25,189 nt of DNA from a virus. Taxonomy: Duplodnaviria; Caudoviricetes. The notes below the pieces were generated by a model. The model had not been told where the DNA came from, did not search any database, and saw nothing but the letters and a program-made list of their open reading frames with translations. Position numbers and translations under genes: made by a program. Shown in pieces: positions 646 through 8,562 of this stretch (position 1 is the first letter of the stretch; every line of letters starts with the position of its first letter). The stretch lies in the IMG/VR virus record IMGVR_UViG_3300015370_000252, positions 1 through 25,189 of that record, one strand, 5' to 3'.

Positions 646-900
646 TTAGATAATTGCTTCAGGACCATAAAATCCAATTACATTTTCGATAGCTCCAGCA
701 GCCATAGCATATGGAACTTCAACTTGGTTTACTACTCCACTCCTAGTTTCAACAACCACGCTTTTAAACATTCTGCCATTTATAGCAAATTCAACTGGCA
801 TAGTGAATTTAAGCATTGTAAAAGAAGGCATCGTTACTTGAGGTGCTTCTTTTATTAAATCAACACTAACAGTTTTCTTATTGGCTTTACGTTTTGCCAT
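646..900 (-). CDS. Possible nested in-frame protein (84 aa, MAKRKANKK...)
   Basis: In-frame ATG at 900 preceded by AAGGAG SD just after the GT4 domain ends. Confidence 0.45.
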   Translation of the reverse strand: MAKRKANKKTVSVDLIKEAPQVTMPSFTMLKFTMPVEFAINGRMFKSVVVETRSGVVNQVEVPYAMAAGAIENVIGFYGPEAII

Positions 901-2604
901 TTTAGTCTCCTTTTTTATTAATTCTAACCAACTCTTAAATATAATATCCCAAGAATGTTGTTTAGCCTTAGCTTTGGCTTTACTAGCCAACTCTTTTCGT
1001 TTTTTATGATTGGTTAATATTTCTACTACAGAGTCTACGAATTCTCCAGCTAATTCACTATTAGATAATATAATTCCACCCTCTCCTACAGTAGTAGGCA
1101 AAGCTCCTAGGTCACTAGTTACTGGTACTGCACCCGCAGCCATACACTCCATTACTGATATACAGAAACACTCATCATAATTACATGGATATGCCATCAC
1201 CTCTGACTCTAATTGATGTTGTACTAGTTCCTTGCGCTCTACTTTCCCCAAAAAATCAACATAGTCTAACTTATTGAACATCCCTTTATATTCGCCGTTT
1301 CTAGCCGTCTCCTGACCCCACAAACGATAATCTGAGGTAATAGTTAAGTTAAATTTTGGGACACGTTTCTTAATCTGCGGAGTTAAAACACTTAAGAGCT
1401 CCAGTCCTCTCATCGGCACACTACAGAATATCACTTTACTTTTAATCTTTTTAACTTTCTTTTTATAATCAACTAGATTTATCCCAAGATCAATGACTTC
1501 TACTCCTTGGGTTTTATAAGTATCCTCTAAATATTTTTTATGAAATTCCGAGATCGCAATAGTCTTATCTACATAAGGAAACACCTTCATATCCCACACT
1601 CCTTGAGCATCAGTATATTGATCACAACTCCAAAACAGCTTAAGTTTAGTATTAGCAACCTCAACGATTGGGTGCCAAGATCTAAATAAAACAAACACAT
1701 CGCAGTATGATGTAGATACATACTCAAAGATATTGTGATAATGTACTCCCCCAAACACACCTACTTTATCAGTATGATTATATATTTCTGTTCTCCAGCC
1801 GTTTTTTGCAAACTCTCTGGCTAAGAGAATAATTGAAGCCTCAGCTCCACCCACACCCTTACCCTCAAAGTCTTCATCTAAAAACCCATAAGGTACTCCA
1901 GATACAAAGAACACTATTCTCTTCTTTTTAGTATTTTTGAGATGCCTCACCATCATTTTATTTCTAAATACAGCCTGGGCAAATATTGTAGTTTTGGGAA
2001 TGTCTATCTGGTCAGAACTTCTTGACTGTAAATGGTGAAGCGCCACGGGTACTTCTAACAATTTATAACCCTTATCCTGAGCCACTACGCTCATCCACAC
2101 ATCTTCAAAATAGGCGGTTCCAAAGTCCTCACACCAAACCTCATCTCCAACCTTAATCTCGTCAAACATCTCCTTAGAGCCAAACACGCACCACCCAGCT
2201 ATATAAGGAGTAGTAATTAGGTCAAAAGCTGTCAATGTATTGTAATCAATTATTTGAGGACCAATCAAAGATTTTGGGGTTTCGTCCAAAGCTTGATTCA
2301 ACATCTCCAACCAATTAGATGAATGATGAACTACATCATTCGAAATAAAACAAATTCTATCTCCAGTAGCTTGAGCATATCCTAAATTATTTCCTCCACC
2401 AAAGCCTAAGTTTTTATCCGATAGAACAACTTTAATCTTCTTTTCTTTTTTAGCTATGTCTTTTAACCACCTATCTGTTCCATCAGAACTCCCGTTATCA
2501 ACAACAATAAGCTCCCAATCTCCTGGAACTTTAAGCATCTGGTTAATAAACGGTACAGTTAAATCATAGAGGTGGTTGAACACTGGTAAAATTAAACTCG
2601 TCAT
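646..2604 (-). CDS. Two-domain glycosyltransferase (N-terminal GT2/GT-A + GT4/GT-B) with extra 84-aa C-terminal module
   Basis: GT2 motifs LILPVFN, ELIVVDNGSSDGT, NLGFGGGNNLG, FISND, YFEDV; GT4 motifs GGAE, ECFCISVMECMAAGAVPVTSDLGALP. Confidence 0.9.
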   Translation of the reverse strand: MTSLILPVFNHLYDLTVPFINQMLKVPGDWELIVVDNGSSDGTDRWLKDIAKKEKKIKVVLSDKNLGFGGGNNLGYAQATGDRICFISNDVVHHSSNWLEMLNQALDETPKSLIGPQIIDYNTLTAFDLITTPYIAGWCVFGSKEMFDEIKVGDEVWCEDFGTAYFEDVWMSVVAQDKGYKLLEVPVALHHLQSRSSDQIDIPKTTIFAQAVFRNKMMVRHLKNTKKKRIVFFVSGVPYGFLDEDFEGKGVGGAEASIILLAREFAKNGWRTEIYNHTDKVGVFGGVHYHNIFEYVSTSYCDVFVLFRSWHPIVEVANTKLKLFWSCDQYTDAQGVWDMKVFPYVDKTIAISEFHKKYLEDTYKTQGVEVIDLGINLVDYKKKVKKIKSKVIFCSVPMRGLELLSVLTPQIKKRVPKFNLTITSDYRLWGQETARNGEYKGMFNKLDYVDFLGKVERKELVQHQLESEVMAYPCNYDECFCISVMECMAAGAVPVTSDLGALPTTVGEGGIILSNSELAGEFVDSVVEILTNHKKRKELASKAKAKAKQHSWDIIFKSWLELIKKETKMAKRKANKKTVSVDLIKEAPQVTMPSFTMLKFTMPVEFAINGRMFKSVVVETRSGVVNQVEVPYAMAAGAIENVIGFYGPEAII

Positions 2605-3494
2605 ATTTCTTCCAGCATTTTCTCAACCCTAGCCTTGAAGGTGTGAGGTTGTACTTTTTTATAACCATTCTCTGCAATTCGCTTCATTTCTTTAGGATTA
2701 TTAAGAAGTGTGTCTATCTTTGCAATAGCTTCATCTTCAGAGTTAAACCCCACATAATCTTCCCCATCTATAAAATCAAACTTTCTTAGATCTGGTACAT
2801 GATTGGTAACCACACATCTACACATCGCCAATCCCTCCCAAAACCGAGCAGGTAAATCCATTTTAGAAGACCAATTAAACGCTATTGGAGCGCTATTGTA
2901 TAACTTTACATATTCATCATAAATATATCCTATCCCAGCAAACACTCTCCAACCTTTAGCAGCTACACCATCCAGCACGCGCTTGCGATGGTCATACTGA
3001 AGGCCACATAACACCACATCATATTTCTGTTTTACAGTTGGAAGATACTTATATATCTCTGGATCATAACCATATGGCATCCAACCGTCATCTGGCTTTC
3101 TATAGTGATCTTGCATAGAAAAGTATTTATCTGCATGTTCTTTTTGAAGATCATAATTAACTACATGTGGATCAGTCCCAATCACAATATTTGGGACTGG
3201 GGCCTTACCACTAATATAATAGGTGTCTGCTGCTTGGATTAATAGATCTGGTTTAATCTTAGCCAACCTAAGTGTTTCAAAAACGTTTTTCATCTCAATA
3301 ATGGGAACATCTGGTGATTCAACCGTTGGTGGGAACCAATACTTCTTAGGATATTCAGTAACACCTTCCCAGGGGATACTCCCCCTAGACCAAGGACCAA
3401 TAGATATAACCTCATGACCAGCTTGCTCTAGCCCCCAATGGATGTAACGGCCCATAGCCATGGGATAGTGTTTATAAAATACCGCTACGGTCAT
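2601..3494 (-). CDS. GT-B glycosyltransferase (CgeB/Glyco_trans_1_2-like)
   Basis: YDVVLCG..R, YVKLYNSAPIAFN, RFWEGLAMCRCVVTN, IAENGYKKVQPHTFKARV; start re-called to ATG 3494 (GGGAGG SD) rather than 3545. Confidence 0.8.
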   Translation of the reverse strand: MTVAVFYKHYPMAMGRYIHWGLEQAGHEVISIGPWSRGSIPWEGVTEYPKKYWFPPTVESPDVPIIEMKNVFETLRLAKIKPDLLIQAADTYYISGKAPVPNIVIGTDPHVVNYDLQKEHADKYFSMQDHYRKPDDGWMPYGYDPEIYKYLPTVKQKYDVVLCGLQYDHRKRVLDGVAAKGWRVFAGIGYIYDEYVKLYNSAPIAFNWSSKMDLPARFWEGLAMCRCVVTNHVPDLRKFDFIDGEDYVGFNSEDEAIAKIDTLLNNPKEMKRIAENGYKKVQPHTFKARVEKMLEEI

Positions 3495-4629
3495 CTTCCT
3501 CCCAAGGCATAGTAAATTCACCCTGTAAAACTTCCATAGAGCCATATCCTTGATAAAAGTCTTTAACTAACCCTATGACTTTTTCTTGTTCACTAAACTT
3601 TAAACCATCGTGTACTGGTAGAGTTAGGAGGTTTACCCACAACTTATCCACAACTGGCATCGGATCTTTAGCAGCCTTTTTCCAATAAGTCATCTCATGT
3701 AAAGGCTTAAAATGAACCGAAGTGGCAATTCCATTCTCTGCTAACATTTCTGAAAGTCCATTCCTGTTGTAGCACTGCATCGTATAATATTGGACTGTAT
3801 AAGTGTTCTTAGGAGTCTTAATAAACTTAATATCTTTAAAAGCGTCATTATATACGCTCTGGTGAGCGCGTCTCTTAGCTGTCATCTCATCCAATCGTCT
3901 CAGTTGACCAAGACCAATGACAGCAGTGATGTCATTCATGTAACCTTTAATAGCATTAGCTTGAGTAATGTCATAATCCCAAGTATATTTCCTGCCCAAA
4001 GTTCTAGAGTAGGTTGTTTTCTCTACTCCCAGCCAGGTTAAAGTTCTTAACTTGTTGTAAATTTCTTTATCATTTGTAGTAATCATTCCCCCATCACCGA
4101 CTGGAAGGCTCTTAACCGCCTGGAAAGACCAGATAGTTATATCTGCATCTTTACCCGCTCCTGGCGTACAGGCAGCATGAGCGGCATCTTCAATCACTAG
4201 AATATTGCCAGCTTTTTTTTTAATAGCTTTAATATCAGCTAAATGTCCATGAGAATCTACAGCTATTATGGCCTTAGTTTCGGGAGTTATTTTTATCGCT
4301 TCGGGGTCTATACAGAAATCATCAGCTCTAATATCGGCAAACGTCACATCCATGTCATTATATTCACCCACAATAGCATCGGAAACAAATGTGAATGGAG
4401 TGGTGATTAACTCTCCACCCCTAATATCATAAACCTTTAAACACAGGTCTAGGGCAGCAGTACCCGAACTAGTACCAACAGCATATTTAGCTCCTACCTT
4501 CTCTGCAAACTTTTCTTCAAATTCTTTAGTCTTTGGTCCCTGTCCAACCCAACCACTGTCTAATACTTCACATAATTCTTTTTTTGTTTGTTCATCAAAA
4601 GTGGGTCTTAAAACTGGGATAACTTTCAT
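3472..4629 (-). CDS. DegT/DnrJ/EryC1/StrS PLP-dependent NDP-sugar aminotransferase
   Basis: SGWVGQGP..FEEKFA, SSGTAAL, TPFTFVS, IEDAAHA, SFQAVKSL (PLP Lys), GDGGMITTND, LTLPVH. Confidence 0.93.
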   Translation of the reverse strand: MKVIPVLRPTFDEQTKKELCEVLDSGWVGQGPKTKEFEEKFAEKVGAKYAVGTSSGTAALDLCLKVYDIRGGELITTPFTFVSDAIVGEYNDMDVTFADIRADDFCIDPEAIKITPETKAIIAVDSHGHLADIKAIKKKAGNILVIEDAAHAACTPGAGKDADITIWSFQAVKSLPVGDGGMITTNDKEIYNKLRTLTWLGVEKTTYSRTLGRKYTWDYDITQANAIKGYMNDITAVIGLGQLRRLDEMTAKRRAHQSVYNDAFKDIKFIKTPKNTYTVQYYTMQCYNRNGLSEMLAENGIATSVHFKPLHEMTYWKKAAKDPMPVVDKLWVNLLTLPVHDGLKFSEQEKVIGLVKDFYQGYGSMEVLQGEFTMPWEEDDRSGIL

Positions 4630-5333
4630 ATTTTCCTTTCATATAACTGGTCCCATAACATAGTATTTAAACTAGTATCTCTAGGCAACCTAACTGGGAT
4701 ACTCACTCTCTTAGTAGGTTGAACCATCCTTGTCCTTAATGCTAATTGATATAAATTCTTTCTACCAGTTCCAATATTAATTACTTTAGGAAGCGTTGCT
4801 TCATTATTTACAGCTCGGGCAACTCTCTCTGCAATAATTTCCACATAATCTCCAGAGGTCCACATATCTGTAGGCACTACTGGATGTGGATATGGGCTAG
4901 GTTTAAATAGAGTTCTAATAATAGAATATTTGGGAGATTTAGTTGCCACAAATTCTCCAAGTAGTTTGGTCATTGAATAAAAATTAACTGGAGCTGGGAC
5001 ATCTCCTTCTTTATAATTCCCCTTTTCTCCATCAAAAACATACTCCGTACTCATATAAATAAATCTAGGAGATCTAACGGCCAGTTGTTCTGTCCCAAAT
5101 ACATTAACTCGATAACACTCGCACTTCTCATACTCAGCTTTGCCTACATCAGTATAAGCCCCCAGATGCAATACTACATCTGGTTTATACTTCTGAAAAG
5201 CTACTTTAATTGAATCCACACTAGTTAGATCCATTTCTTCTCTATCTACAAAGATAGCATCTTTAAAATATTGTTTTAGATGACTTGCCAGCAAACCTTT
5301 GCCGCCTGTAATCATTAGCTTTTTTGACTGCAT
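4626..5333 (-). CDS. RmlD-like NDP-4-keto-6-deoxysugar reductase (SDR)
   Basis: ITGGKGLLA Rossmann motif, AYTDVGKAE, STEYVFDG, PVNFYSMTKLLGE (YxxxK); shorter than typical RmlD. Confidence 0.88.
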   Translation of the reverse strand: MQSKKLMITGGKGLLASHLKQYFKDAIFVDREEMDLTSVDSIKVAFQKYKPDVVLHLGAYTDVGKAEYEKCECYRVNVFGTEQLAVRSPRFIYMSTEYVFDGEKGNYKEGDVPAPVNFYSMTKLLGEFVATKSPKYSIIRTLFKPSPYPHPVVPTDMWTSGDYVEIIAERVARAVNNEATLPKVINIGTGRKNLYQLALRTRMVQPTKRVSIPVRLPRDTSLNTMLWDQLYERKI

Positions 5334-5739
5334 TAACTAGCTCTCCTTTCAGAGCTAAATCTACTATTTTTTTCATTTCTGGATTTGGTTTCGCATCTTT
5401 ATTTCTAGCTCTCTGTAAATCTAAATATGAGAGACCTTTCTTTTTCATCATTTTCTCTTGTGCTATCTCGTGGGGTTTGAGTTTAAGTCCCATATGTTTC
5501 CAAAATGGAGTAGCCCAATATTCTTCTTTAGAATGTAATGATTGATAGTGCGGAGTTATATGACCACCAATTTTATCTAGTTTATTCTTGCAATTTTTGC
5601 AAGGAAGCACACTAAACCTGAGGTCTATAATAGCTCCTACCTCGTCACAATTAGGGCACTTAGTGCAAGAATTACAAAAAGATTCTCCTAAAGTGTTTAT
5701 CCTAATCATCTCGCCAGTACCACAAAGTTTACACTTCAT
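5263..5739 (-). CDS. Hypothetical protein with N-terminal Cys-rich zinc ribbons
   Basis: Four CxxC pairs (CKLC, CNSC, CPNC, CKNC), basic C-terminus; overlaps both neighbours. Confidence 0.65.
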   Translation of the reverse strand: MKCKLCGTGEMIRINTLGESFCNSCTKCPNCDEVGAIIDLRFSVLPCKNCKNKLDKIGGHITPHYQSLHSKEEYWATPFWKHMGLKLKPHEIAQEKMMKKKGLSYLDLQRARNKDAKPNPEMKKIVDLALKGELVNAVKKANDYRRQRFAGKSSKTIF

Positions 5740-6779
5740 TTAAAAACTCCACTAATTTTTTAACACATAATTCCCAAGAATAATTCTTATGAATAAATTT
5801 ACTCGCCTTTTTACCCACTACAAAAGAATAATCTTTATTTTCATACATATGCCTCATTGCGCCCATTAATTCTGGAATATCTATTTTTGCCCAATTACCA
5901 GGCTGCTCCACCATTGGGTTAGCTTTATACAACCCTGCTGGAGTTAGAGCTAATCCTAGATGAGCTATATCTTCTAAACCCGAATAATTAGTCAAGATAG
6001 TTGGTAAACCAGTGGCCATTGCTTCTCGAGGAGGATAGCCAACCCCTTCAGCTTTTGATGGAAACACAAAACAATCTAAATCTTTATACCACTCAACTAA
6101 TTTCTTATAACTCCACAGTTCTGTTGTGATTTCAATTCGTTTATCTTTCATGTTGGCGTAGTAGCCTAAAAACGGGTCTGTACTATGAAGTAGTAATTTC
6201 ACTGGCTCTCCTTGGTCAAACTCACTGGAGAACGCACGTATTAGCTCAAAAACGCCTTTTCTATCATTCAAGTACCCACAAGAGCCAAACAGATACTCAA
6301 CCCGCTTACGCTTGTTTCTTTCACGATATCTAAACCTCTTAGTATCTATACCGTGAGGAATAACTTTAATTGGTACAAACACTCCACATTTCTTAAAAAC
6401 TCGTCTATAAAAATCATTGGGGACAATTACATAATGCATTGTGTTTAATGCACCTACCCATGTTGGACCGATTTCATCAGTCTCAGCCATGGTGTTGGCT
6501 ATCTTAACCTCACACTTGTTTAAATAAAAATGATCTGGGGTGGTTTCTATAATTCCAATTCTTCTCTCCTCAAAAGGTTTATCAAACATTTCGCGCTCTT
6601 CATCATCTAGTACATCCCACTCATCGGTACCAGGTCTAGGAATAAATTTAGCGCTTATTGACACATCTACCCCACTTCTGATAAGGTACTTACACCAGTT
6701 AATATTAGCTATTCCGTAAGGGATAGCCCCCGAAAGGAGTAAAATATCCCAGATATGAGACTTTTAGATTCGAAGGCAT
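5729..6779 (-). CDS. GT4 glycosyltransferase whose 5' end (6779-6723) is out of frame with the body (6718-5729)
   Basis: Body: IPHGID, RKGVFELIRAF, FVFPSKAEGVGYPPREAMATGLPTI. AAGGAGG + ATG 6779 gives MPSNLKVSYLGYFTPFGGY; YGIANINWCKYL continues in the body frame after 7 extra nt. Confidence 0.8.
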
Positions 6780-7330
6780 TATGTGTATCCTCCTTTCTTC
6801 CCAATCCTCAAAAAAGGAAGATTGGTAGGGGTGGATATATTTACATCTCTATTCCTGACCACCCTAACAGGACTAAAGATGGATATTACCTTGAACATCG
6901 ATTTATAGTTGAGAAGTATCTTGGAAGACTTCTTGATAGAAAAGAAGCTGTACATCATGTAGATCATAATCCAGCCAATAATAAAATAAATAATTTGATA
7001 GTTTATAAAAGTTCTGGACAACACTTGAAACATGAACATAATATAAAAAATAGGTTCGGCCAATATACCAAACCTGGAAAAATAACTCTTGAAATTAAAA
7101 AAGGTATTTATAAAAATTGCCTGATTTGTAAAAAGAAATTTTATTTGCTTCCATCTAGAAAGAAATATAAATTTTGTTCCCGTAAGTGCATGGGAAAATC
7201 TTATAAAAATAGACCAGCTCCTTGGATGAAAAGACCACGATCTCTTGAAACTAGAAAAAAAATGAGTCAAAGTGCTAAAAAAGCCCATAGAAATAAACTT
7301 GGAAAATTTATTCACAGCTCCCCCTTGTAA
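6755..7330 (+). CDS. Free-standing HNH homing endonuclease, antisense to the operon
   Basis: GYIYISIPDHP..GYYLEHRFIVEKYLGR..VHHVDHNPANNKINNL (HNH_3-like); CxxC..FCSRKC zinc finger; NUMOD3-like RSLETRKKMSQS. Confidence 0.88.
   Translation: MRLLDSKALCVSSFLPNPQKRKIGRGGYIYISIPDHPNRTKDGYYLEHRFIVEKYLGRLLDRKEAVHHVDHNPANNKINNLIVYKSSGQHLKHEHNIKNRFGQYTKPGKITLEIKKGIYKNCLICKKKFYLLPSRKKYKFCSRKCMGKSYKNRPAPWMKRPRSLETRKKMSQSAKKAHRNKLGKFIHSSPL
6779..7315 (-). CDS. Antisense ORF over the HNH gene (178 aa, Phe-rich); function doubtful
   Basis: Open frame with GGGGGAG SD; GTGA overlap with upstream stop and TAATG overlap with downstream GT start; composition is that of a shadow frame. Confidence 0.3.
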   Translation of the reverse strand: MNKFSKFISMGFFSTLTHFFSSFKRSWSFHPRSWSIFIRFSHALTGTKFIFLSRWKQIKFLFTNQAIFINTFFNFKSYFSRFGILAEPIFYIMFMFQVLSRTFINYQIIYFIIGWIMIYMMYSFFSIKKSSKILLNYKSMFKVISIFSPVRVVRNRDVNISTPTNLPFLRIGKKGGYT

Positions 7331-7500
7331 TCACTACCAAAAATAATCTGATATTGAGCCAGAGCAAGTTCTGACTTAACCCCCTTTTCAAATAAAAAAT
7401 TAACCCCGTTGACACCACCAGAGATGGTTCGTTTTGGAGTTATAGTATATTTCCCGACTATCTCGTTAAGAGCTTTGACGGGTTTGATTGACCTCTTCAT
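7312..7500 (-). CDS. Small capsid-linked hypothetical protein (62 aa)
   Basis: Immediately downstream of the MCP; GVNGVNFLFEKGV resembles from memory small proteins found after N4-gp56-type capsid genes. Confidence 0.6.
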   Translation of the reverse strand: MKRSIKPVKALNEIVGKYTITPKRTISGGVNGVNFLFEKGVKSELALAQYQIIFGSDYKGEL

Positions 7501-7602: not shown

Positions 7603-8562
7603 CTATCTAGGTGTCTCAAGTCTATACATCCAGTTGTTGTTCAAAAGAACAGACTTAAACATATATTTCCAAGTAAGAGCGTGTTTATTCGCCCATTCAT
7701 CTCCATGTCCACCAGGTTTGGTGTAAACCACATCATAGTCATTCAGCATCCATTTGGTAATACCATATGAATTTTGTCCGACAATAATGGATTGCTCTAA
7801 AGTTGTAACAGCATTGTTAGAACCCGAGCTACCAATAGTAGGGGCCATAGATGAGAATTGAAACCCAATACCTAAAAATTCAGCGATAGTTGCAGTGTAG
7901 TAGTAATCTCTAGTACCACGACTAACAATTTCTCTAAAACTGGAATCTTTAAGCATCTGTTCAACTATATTAGCGCTAACCATAGCACGGAAGTTTCCGC
8001 GAATTGGTTTGCCATCGTTGTTTCGGAGTGCCGTAACAACAGCTAAAAAGTCGTTCATATCAGCCTTATCATTACTGTCTAATAGGTTACGAGCAGCCTT
8101 ACCATTTCCATAGTAAGCCGAAGTACCAACTCTTAGTACATTAATGACTTCTTGCTCAATAGCTTCTGAGGCGTGTTGAGCATTTAGCATTCTCAATTCC
8201 TTGGGAATATCTGCGAACGAAGTGTAATCTACACCTTCATTCCAGGCGTGACCTTGACCAAACAAGAAATCTACCTGAGCTGATACCGTAGTATCTGCTG
8301 GGGTTGCTGGAGTCCAGGTTGGGGAAGTACCAGTGGTGTTCTTAATATACTGATAAACAGTCGTACTAAAATCGGTTCCACCAGCAGCTAATCCAGGCTT
8401 GGTCATTCTAAACCATTGTCTAGTATGTCCTGCGCGTTTCCCAACGCGGTCGCCTTGTCCAAACTGTTGATAGATTAAATTGGGTTTTGCCCATTCTAAT
8501 CCTTCTGCAACAAAATCTGTTTTTTCTAGATCTGTAAGTGTGCTTATTGCAATTGCAGCCAT
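7603..8562 (-). CDS. Major capsid protein, N4-gp56-like
   Basis: 319 aa after scaffold; AAAGGAG SD; YQQFG, LRNNDGKP, SIIVGQNSYG, KPGGHGDEWAN..WK..F.SVLLNNNWMYRLET C-terminal pattern. Confidence 0.85.
   Translation of the reverse strand: MAAIAISTLTDLEKTDFVAEGLEWAKPNLIYQQFGQGDRVGKRAGHTRQWFRMTKPGLAAGGTDFSTTVYQYIKNTTGTSPTWTPATPADTTVSAQVDFLFGQGHAWNEGVDYTSFADIPKELRMLNAQHASEAIEQEVINVLRVGTSAYYGNGKAARNLLDSNDKADMNDFLAVVTALRNNDGKPIRGNFRAMVSANIVEQMLKDSSFREIVSRGTRDYYYTATIAEFLGIGFQFSSMAPTIGSSGSNNAVTTLEQSIIVGQNSYGITKWMLNDYDVVYTKPGGHGDEWANKHALTWKYMFKSVLLNNNWMYRLETPR

Follow-up and report, generated by a model that had tools for sequence, protein, structure and literature searches.

A tailed-phage glycosyltransferase gene with a 7-nt gap between matched tyrosine codons beside an antisense HNH gene: a candidate for translational recoding

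The glycosyltransferase gene and its gap

The window, the whole 25,189-nucleotide stretch analysed here (IMG/VR record IMGVR_UViG_3300015370_000252), is a tailed-phage-like genome part in which terminase, portal and major head protein are present, and a comparison with 50,697 phage records gave no close relative. The head gene is followed immediately by a cluster of five sugar enzymes (646-6779), which suggests a role in virion or surface glycosylation. Its first member is assigned to the GT4 glycosyltransferases by Pfam PF00534 (51 bits, cut-off 26) and PF13692 and by PHROG 2170, has 3oy2 as its nearest solved relative, and belongs to a protein cluster whose database copies sit on contigs of 41.4 and 41.3 kb.

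This gene is interrupted near its start (Table 1). The first 19 codons of the start frame encode the family N-terminus and the remainder is out of frame up to its TAA. Since the main frame has its earliest ATG, GTG or TTG at residue 39 only, the protein is stored in databases as a 311-aa fragment (P0002), an example of how gene callers truncate such enzymes. We re-derived every coordinate of the sequence-only reading that preceded this analysis, and the AAGGAGG, the ATG at 6779, the start frame of 24 codons, the TAA at 6707-6705 and the gap at 6722-6716 were all reproduced; its statement that removal of the 7 nt yields a seamless 347-aa GT4 also held, both in length and in the spacing of the family motif. 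In an AlphaFold model of the +1-shift reading (pLDDT 94.2), which has a two-domain alpha/beta fold, strand beta-1 spans residues 6-12 and the break falls in the loop ahead of the first helix, so that the 311-aa fragment would be predicted to lack both elements. Losing beta-1 and the first helix would be expected to kill a GT-B enzyme.

Table 1. Features of the glycosyltransferase locus in the window and layout of the breaks in related loci
Feature	Position	Strand	Basis or remark
Major head protein, upstream in the GT4 operon	7603..8562	-	phrog_1357
62-aa upstream ORF marking the insertion boundary	7312..7500	-	Comparison with intact relatives
Free-standing HNH endonuclease gene, 191 aa	6755..7330	+	HNH_3, E 3.6e-08; PHROGs HNH
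Open mirror frame of the HNH gene, 178 codons	6779..7315	-	0/178 TTA/CTA/TCA, P 3e-6 (window usage)
Shine-Dalgarno AAGGAGG	6789..6795	-	9 nt 5' of the ATG
Start-frame ORF, 24 codons	6705..6779	-	ATG 6779-6777, TAA 6707-6705
Candidate take-off codon TAT (Tyr19)	6723..6725	-	End of the loop from beta-1 to the first helix
7-nt coding gap CCCTTAC	6716..6722	-	Coordinates re-derived, family spacing, jump enumeration
Candidate landing codon TAC, last three gap bases	6718-6716	-	
8-bp hairpin made by the insert, GUAA loop	6708..6727	+	z -3.47 on +, -1.31 on -
Main GT4 (GT-B) glycosyltransferase frame	5729..6715	-	TAA 5731-5729
Downstream sugar genes: 158-aa ORF, RmlD-like, DegT aminotransferase, two more glycosyltransferases	646..5739	-	Pfam
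Break in the window			7 nt, TAT>TAC, sense CCC after take-off
Break in L015 (60% identical)			7 nt at the window's site, TAT>TAC, TAG directly after take-off
Break in L017			1 extra base, TTT>TTC
Break in L014			1 extra base, TTT>TTT
Break in L031			5 nt, TAT>TAT
Break in L045 (39% identical to P0003)	L045:4672-4731	+	6 nt, in-frame GGT-TGA-GGT

Breaks in related loci

Scanning with anchors in the GT4 body or in the head protein yielded 35 distinct loci whose 5' end is visible. Duplicates were dropped (L002-4, L012, L022, L027, L032-36, L044, L046, L132, L136 and L142, and those in the pairs L128/L045, L127/L043, L129/L042 and L140/L001), as were, before counting, L028, which has no 5' end, and L030 and L037, which represent a different gene. 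The GT4 gene is broken in 6 of the 35, always inside a single motif of ~30 nt and at codons equivalent to 10-19 of ~345, with gaps of 1, 1, 5, 6, 7 and 7 nt. The six belong to three clades that have intact sisters; their grouping in a single clade is rejected (p-AU 1e-6). When 13 intact genes are compared at the DNA level in 30-nt segments, the motif ranks among the four best conserved. Of 127 protein clusters, 114 show the fixed spacing (112 recognized by pattern and 2 by eye) and 13 have shortened or out-of-frame starts, and none carries an in-frame insertion in the motif. Shortened starts in P0016, P0019, P0031, P0056, P0067, P0097, P0109 and P0120 may hide more breaks, while the out-of-frame reading of the motif in P0006 and P0030, judged from protein alone, is kept outside the six of 35.

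In all six broken loci, a forward move of the P-site tRNA to a matched codon restores the family spacing. The codon immediately after take-off is a stop in two of them (L015 and L045) and a sense codon in the window, L014, L017 and L031. The break of L045, which lies behind an AGGAGG and a GTG start in a complete viral record of 44.5 kb, would be a textbook layout for a stop-hop, with re-initiation at an ATG two codons past GGT-TGA-GGT as an alternative. An alternative genetic code was rejected for both loci with a stop, as TGA ends four of the six long ORFs of L045 and reading through the TAG of L015 still runs into a TAA. L015 keeps GGCTAT-NNN-TTACGG with flanking synonymous sites that differ from those of the window, and DNA identity round the break (0.60-0.71, as in other pairs) gives no sign of recent common ancestry of the two. 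The question raised by the sequence-only reading, whether homologues conserve the 7 nt, thus has a divided answer: L015 has an insert of this length at the same site, and the other breaks measure 1, 1, 5 and 6 nt.

Matched codons would be expected by chance for 6% of random inserts of 5-7 nt, 32% under a short duplication model and 17-42% for inserts of 1 nt. Exact tandem duplications always yield them, a class to which the 5- and 7-nt inserts do not belong. L015, L031 and P0030 form a subclade with every member broken. The close sisters L019 and P0003 are intact.

A conserved Trp at residue 28 (102 of 116 proteins) is replaced by Gln only in L014, L017, L031, P0006, P0030 and P0126. The Gln28 copies are all broken at codons 12-15 and belong to two clades; Gln28 might perhaps reflect a 5' block that these copies share, or else be a further change at the target site. 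A literature search, mostly of open texts, returned nothing on breaks in this GT4 family or on bypassing in phages of Patescibacteria.

Selection on the broken genes

The frames downstream of the breaks are under purifying selection. Omega is 0.04-0.12 between broken copies, 0.08-0.14 between broken copies and the intact L019, and 0.09-0.13 for the main frame of the window against three relatives, with 0.05-0.09 for the head protein and RmlD; these values average whole branches with dS near saturation, and a recent break would go unseen. The window retains 81 of 83 conserved columns, broken copies as a set 80-82 and intact ones a median of 81, and we found no second lesion in any of the six broken GT4 copies. 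L014 and L017 share one break at a pS of 0.73 between them, and L045 differs from its sisters (pN 0.21-0.25, pS about 0.8) as much as these differ among themselves. Private changes number 21 synonymous and 8 non-synonymous in the window, and 12 and 5 in the intact L019.

In the population of the window, Ala243Ser segregates (position 6052, 2 runs) in the conserved AEG motif of GT4, at a column where Ala is invariant in 46 aligned sequences. Another variant at 6765 (4 runs) leaves the GT4 leader peptide unchanged but replaces Leu by Ser in the HNH protein.

The HNH gene and its mirror frame

The HNH gene is antisense to the operon, and its start overlaps the 5' end of GT4. It has the features of a free-standing endonuclease gene, namely an HNH_3 domain, an intergenic position and a patchy distribution among relatives. 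In close intact relatives, GT4 starts on an ATGA or GTGA overlap with the 62-aa ORF. This old overlap is precisely the point where the antisense HNH gene of the window, L017 and L015 is inserted, followed by AGGAGG and a new start; L014, L031 and L045 have a short spacer and the same new start with no HNH gene. In the window, the AAGGAGG takes the place of the translational coupling of the intact relatives.

An HNH gene lies directly upstream in three of the six broken loci and in none of the 29 intact ones, and an AGGAGG start is present in six of six and 1 of 29, respectively. The corresponding Fisher values (0.003 for HNH, 4e-6 for AGGAGG) are overstated, there being only three independent contrasts, on which a sign test gives p 0.25 for the Shine-Dalgarno and p 0.5-1 for HNH. 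The putative link between the HNH cassette and the GT4 break is well supported by layout and draws on few independent events.

The HNH core of the window is 42-45% identical to those of L017 and L015, and the three proteins share a common core (34-45% identity) with differing accessory parts. L015 and L017 have the most similar HNH layout and different inserts, while the window and L015 have the same insert site and different layouts; because of this mismatch, nuclease and insert appear to reassort. Other endonuclease-like ORFs, HNH-like to the eye, crowd the sugar operon: they lie between RmlD and DegT in L019, after DegT in L031, and nearby in L130, L043 and L045, and in L008 an ORF that by eye resembles LAGLIDADG proteins splits the head gene, possibly as an intron.

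On the operon strand, the HNH gene is mirrored by an open frame, which begins at the ancestral coupled GTG and closes with a TAA overlapping the new ATG. The frame is likewise open in L017 and L015 (0 TTA, CTA or TCA in 177-178 codons, P 2e-6 to 3e-5), and would likely keep ribosomes on the operon mRNA. Among relatives of the HNH family, it is open in 12 of 16 genes that are antisense to both neighbours versus 2 of 23 co-oriented ones, with orientation judged crudely, both open co-oriented cases GC-rich, and L099 perhaps a different case. Mirror frames that are both open and coupled to the two neighbouring genes were observed in L049, L061, L074, L085, L096, L105, L106, L108, L109, L111 and L123. 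An antisense HNH gene with an open, coupled mirror frame is likely to act as an anti-polarity device, to judge from these arrangements, and a literature search on open mirror frames of antisense HNH genes returned no paper. As a trait of the HNH family, the open frame loses weight as special evidence of GT4 expression.

We also considered whether the insert serves as part of an HNH promoter, and rejected this as no passing sigma-70 site spans it. Inside GT4 and directed towards HNH (~6658-6687, plus strand) there is a TTGACA with an 18-nt spacer and a weak TG-extended -10, which is not a passing site. On the HNH strand of L017 and L015, next to the GT4 Shine-Dalgarno on its upstream side, good sigma-70-like -10 boxes are visible by eye ~7 nt ahead of the likely HNH ATG, a spacing that suggests leaderless HNH mRNAs there. 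A group I or II intron was discarded too, there being no Rfam intron match in five broken loci and the inserted stretch being filled by the HNH ORF.

Local RNA structure and codon context

The sequence-only reading had placed the take-off codon in a stem (6720..6750, minus strand) and assigned it a possible role in recoding. This stem exists (-11.7 kcal/mol), and it is no better than those of shuffled sequences (z -0.58 over 111 nt, -0.45 over 48 nt and -0.41 over 71 nt) and is absent from L015 despite the 7-nt insert at the same site; a role for it is not supported. A second hairpin (6708..6727) is made by the insert itself and, on the GT4 strand, has TAT in its 5' arm and TAC in its loop. 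It is specific to the window, being absent in L015, and may play a role in HNH expression or be a mere sign of origin by template switching. No RNA structure is common to the broken loci, the take-off stem-loop being absent in L015 and L045.

The A-site codon of the window, CCC, accounts for 49 of 285 Pro codons of the phage and is not rare, which argues against a hungry codon at take-off. The gene 60/MobA layout includes a mini-Shine-Dalgarno 5-7 nt before the landing codon; a G-rich run is present 8 nt 5' of TAC in the window and L015, and it is encoded by Gly-Gly codons in intact copies too.

Hosts of the related phages

A related prophage, L029, shows 55-70% identity in GT4, portal, terminase and head protein and is located terminally on a 125-kb Collierbacteria contig, which runs into lower-GC glycosylation genes that we judged by eye to be of host type. 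Searches of the class and the order gave this prophage only, with a related prophage in 1 of 286 genomes of the order. Among 151 genomes of the class of this contig, ribosomal protein L9 was detected in 11, compared with 148 for L20; one of the 11, G070, is flagged as unpublished, and its removal changes nothing. Microgenomates are stated to lack L9 in the portions of the literature covered (PMC7304191), and loss of L9 is reported there to raise frameshifting and hopping (PMC6815119). Other labels among the relatives are a Saprospiraceae-labelled record and a Saccharibacteria-labelled bin, G002, that has an L9 match and a 6-kb contig of the phage family and may be mis-binned. Going by the hosts indicated for relatives, an L9-less host may permit hops.

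A proposed hop between matched codons

The sequence-only reading had put forward a ribosomal hop or a +1 frameshift. Five other matched-codon breaks, two A-site stops and a conserved downstream frame support the general idea, and we consider it probable that translational recoding rescues the reading of GT4; a +1 shift at CCC-U is disfavoured. The more specific proposal that the 7 nt are part of a mobile HNH cassette, shield the gene from its own nuclease and are hopped from TAT to TAC has, in our view, about an even chance of being right.

According to this proposal, the HNH endonuclease would nick intact alleles in or near the motif and spread together with the rewritten 5' end, the insert spoiling the HNH target and leaving the protein unchanged. 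In a fraction of ribosomes, tRNA-Tyr would re-pair 7 nt downstream and synthesis would go on to the normal 347-aa enzyme; the remaining ribosomes would release a 24-aa peptide, and the strong Shine-Dalgarno would offset the loss from failed hops. L014, L031 and L045, with the new start and no HNH gene, would be remnants after loss of the nuclease. A host without L9 would make short unassisted hops efficient enough, a permissive host standing in place of a stimulator. A hop fits all six broken loci, whereas a +1 slip fits only the window, L014 and L017, and re-initiation fails in the window and L014; against the proposal as a whole stands the absence of HNH from half of the broken copies. The further idea that recoding tunes the first glycosylation enzyme found no support.

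Extended to the whole group, the proposal would be that homing endonucleases in phages of L9-less Patescibacteria immunise their targets through almost any matched-codon insert of 1-7 nt, with neither a stem-loop nor a peptide signal, an idea that we advance tentatively and regard as somewhat doubtful. If true, it would line up within one gene family naturally occurring steps that begin with a +1 slip, pass to a sense-codon hop and end with an in-frame stop-hop, would show how elaborate bypasses like that of T4 gene 60 begin, and would give the loss of L9 a visible genomic consequence.

Alternative explanations

The same cassette and rescue could operate through a +1 frameshift at CCC-U (or GGG-G), which would add two residues to the loop and which we consider unlikely. 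Re-pairing is possible both from CCC to CCT and from GGG to GGG, L014 and L017 require exactly a +1 slip, and the model of the shifted product folds at a pLDDT of 94. A GGGGG run also sits 4 nt ahead of CCC, a spacing loosely likened to the layout of prfB; this run is expected from the Gly-Gly codons anyway, and the A-site after CCC holds TTA, the commonest Leu codon (185 of 452), and not a stop. The two extra residues would be at odds with a motif that is free of in-frame insertions in 127 clusters, and neither the in-frame case of L045 nor the 5-nt case of L031 is a +1 event. What favours a hop is L015, which has TAG at the place of CCC and no matched +1 option there, yet keeps TAT...TAC.

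The inserts might instead be repair scars or escape mutations that silence a dispensable enzyme, each break being recent. Several different inserts at one site would fit repeated nuclease damage, the intact site is quasi-palindromic, and the window and L031 carry inserts that lengthen local inverted repeats in the manner of template switching; Ala243Ser segregates, and the sisters L019 and P0003 are intact. The lack of a second lesion in six of six broken copies and the low omega between them (0.04-0.12) speak against this, as do the break shared by L014 and L017 over saturated synonymous divergence and the subclade of L015, L031 and P0030 in which all are broken. The 5' segments, moreover, keep the family sequence in frame behind a strong Shine-Dalgarno, and a scar gives no reason for stops flanked by matched codons twice. 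The inactivating scar beside the HNH gene that had been offered earlier is thus rather improbable, with the HNH gene more likely the carrier of the insert, and retains a small share of our belief.

Less probable again is a split enzyme, in which the leader peptide supplies beta-1 and ribosomes re-initiate for the rest, like the split T4 topoisomerase. There is a main-frame ATG, GTG or TTG near the break in L015, L017 and L045 and further up in L031, and the leaders of L015 and L045 end just past the family-like part. In the window and L014, a canonical start is missing at this place, yet their residues after the break are conserved; out-of-frame starts come automatically from Tyr-Gly, Gly-Gly and Phe-Gly codons, and the matched codons are left unexplained.

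Removal of the extra bases before translation, by DNA phase variation, polymerase slippage or splicing, is very improbable. L014 and L017 are one-base expansions of T runs, and contigs conceal minority alleles, but the 5-7-nt gaps lack a run of identical bases, five broken loci have no Rfam intron, and six bridging assemblies show no indel. These assemblies come from groundwater runs, and the mapping over 6716-6725 called for by the sequence-only reading was done on their contigs: six of seven runs span 6716-6722 with the 7 nt present, and the seventh has no coverage there. Two of the six are possibly the source of the window and the other four come from three studies, one with a depth of ~999; all seven are assembled contigs, which drop rare variants, so a minority insert-free allele is possible. 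At base 6765, none of the four main runs agrees with the window, which has an error or a variant there, but an assembly error as the origin of the 7 nt is refuted at contig level by the six gap-free runs and by the 7-nt insert of L015 at the same site, and we give it practically no credence.

Comparison with known recoding and homing systems

To our knowledge, the bench-proven programmed bypassing in bacteria is that of T4 gene 60. In the portions of the sources covered, to which the comparisons below refer, the MobA element is described as the donor of a new N-terminus whose nuclease frequently disappears or is exchanged (Manning and Atkins, bioRxiv 10.1101/2022.08.31.505936); self-nicking is reported there, citing Bonocora 2011, to be prevented by the bypass insert. 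The locus described here is like gene 60/MobA in having an HNH gene beside its target, a new start with a homologous N-terminal stretch, and an insert that interrupts a conserved motif and is flanked by codons which a single tRNA can read, if need be by wobble. In both, some copies have a stop after take-off, and the nuclease is lost or exchanged while the insert stays. The two differ in the target, which is a glycosyltransferase and not a topoisomerase (large subunit), in the gap, which is 1-7 nt here and 20-50 there (50 nt in T4 gene 60), and in the position and codon of the break, which vary here (Phe, Tyr, Gly) with no conserved stem-loop. The A-site codon is a sense codon in four of the six loci, the HNH gene is antisense with an open mirror frame, and the upstream gene is unsplit. 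Bypassing is bench-proven for gene 60, while our case is a prediction from sequence. The GT4 cassette may by analogy work like MobA/gene 60 but is not a member of that class: its target is another gene, its gaps are shorter, it has no conserved stem-loop, and the window has no stop directly after take-off.

No natural in-frame stop-hop was known as of a 2016 review, in the portions covered (PMC5009743). The GGT-TGA-GGT of L045 has the same in-frame layout as the synthetic stop-hops treated there and L015 represents an out-of-frame form, unlike the window, which has a sense codon at the stop position. The 'savior' indels of compensatory frameshifting (PMC5009743) are similar in that a protective indel is tolerated through low-level slippage, and the 1-nt copies L014 and L017 would work like these or like a prfB-type +1 shift (PMC5009743, PMC6815119). 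The prfB shift relies on a Shine-Dalgarno-like stimulator and a stop (PMC6815119), whereas the CCC of the window is not an A-site stop and we saw no sign of feedback regulation.

Skipping of matched-codon inserts under permissive host translation would be shared with the mitochondrial byps of Magnusiomyces (bioRxiv 10.1101/2022.08.31.505936) and with a candidate UUA bypass of a Streptomyces phage (PMC10732093). The byps differ in length (27-55 nt) and in being mitochondrial, and a link with endonucleases is undescribed in the portions covered. Like the free-standing homing endonucleases of T4, which are expected to cut a neighbouring gene and co-convert its flanks (PMC2988022), the HNH gene is intergenic and adjoins a conserved gene; its antisense insertion with a coupled mirror ORF is undescribed in the parts of that source covered, and points to homing endonucleases that invade operons backwards without polarity. 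One gene family here offers six natural designs with very short gaps, each of a size that suits a reporter, with and without an A-site stop and with intact sisters as controls. They open two questions to direct test, namely how little is needed for hopping to be useful and whether genomes that have naturally lost L9 can tolerate such inserts.
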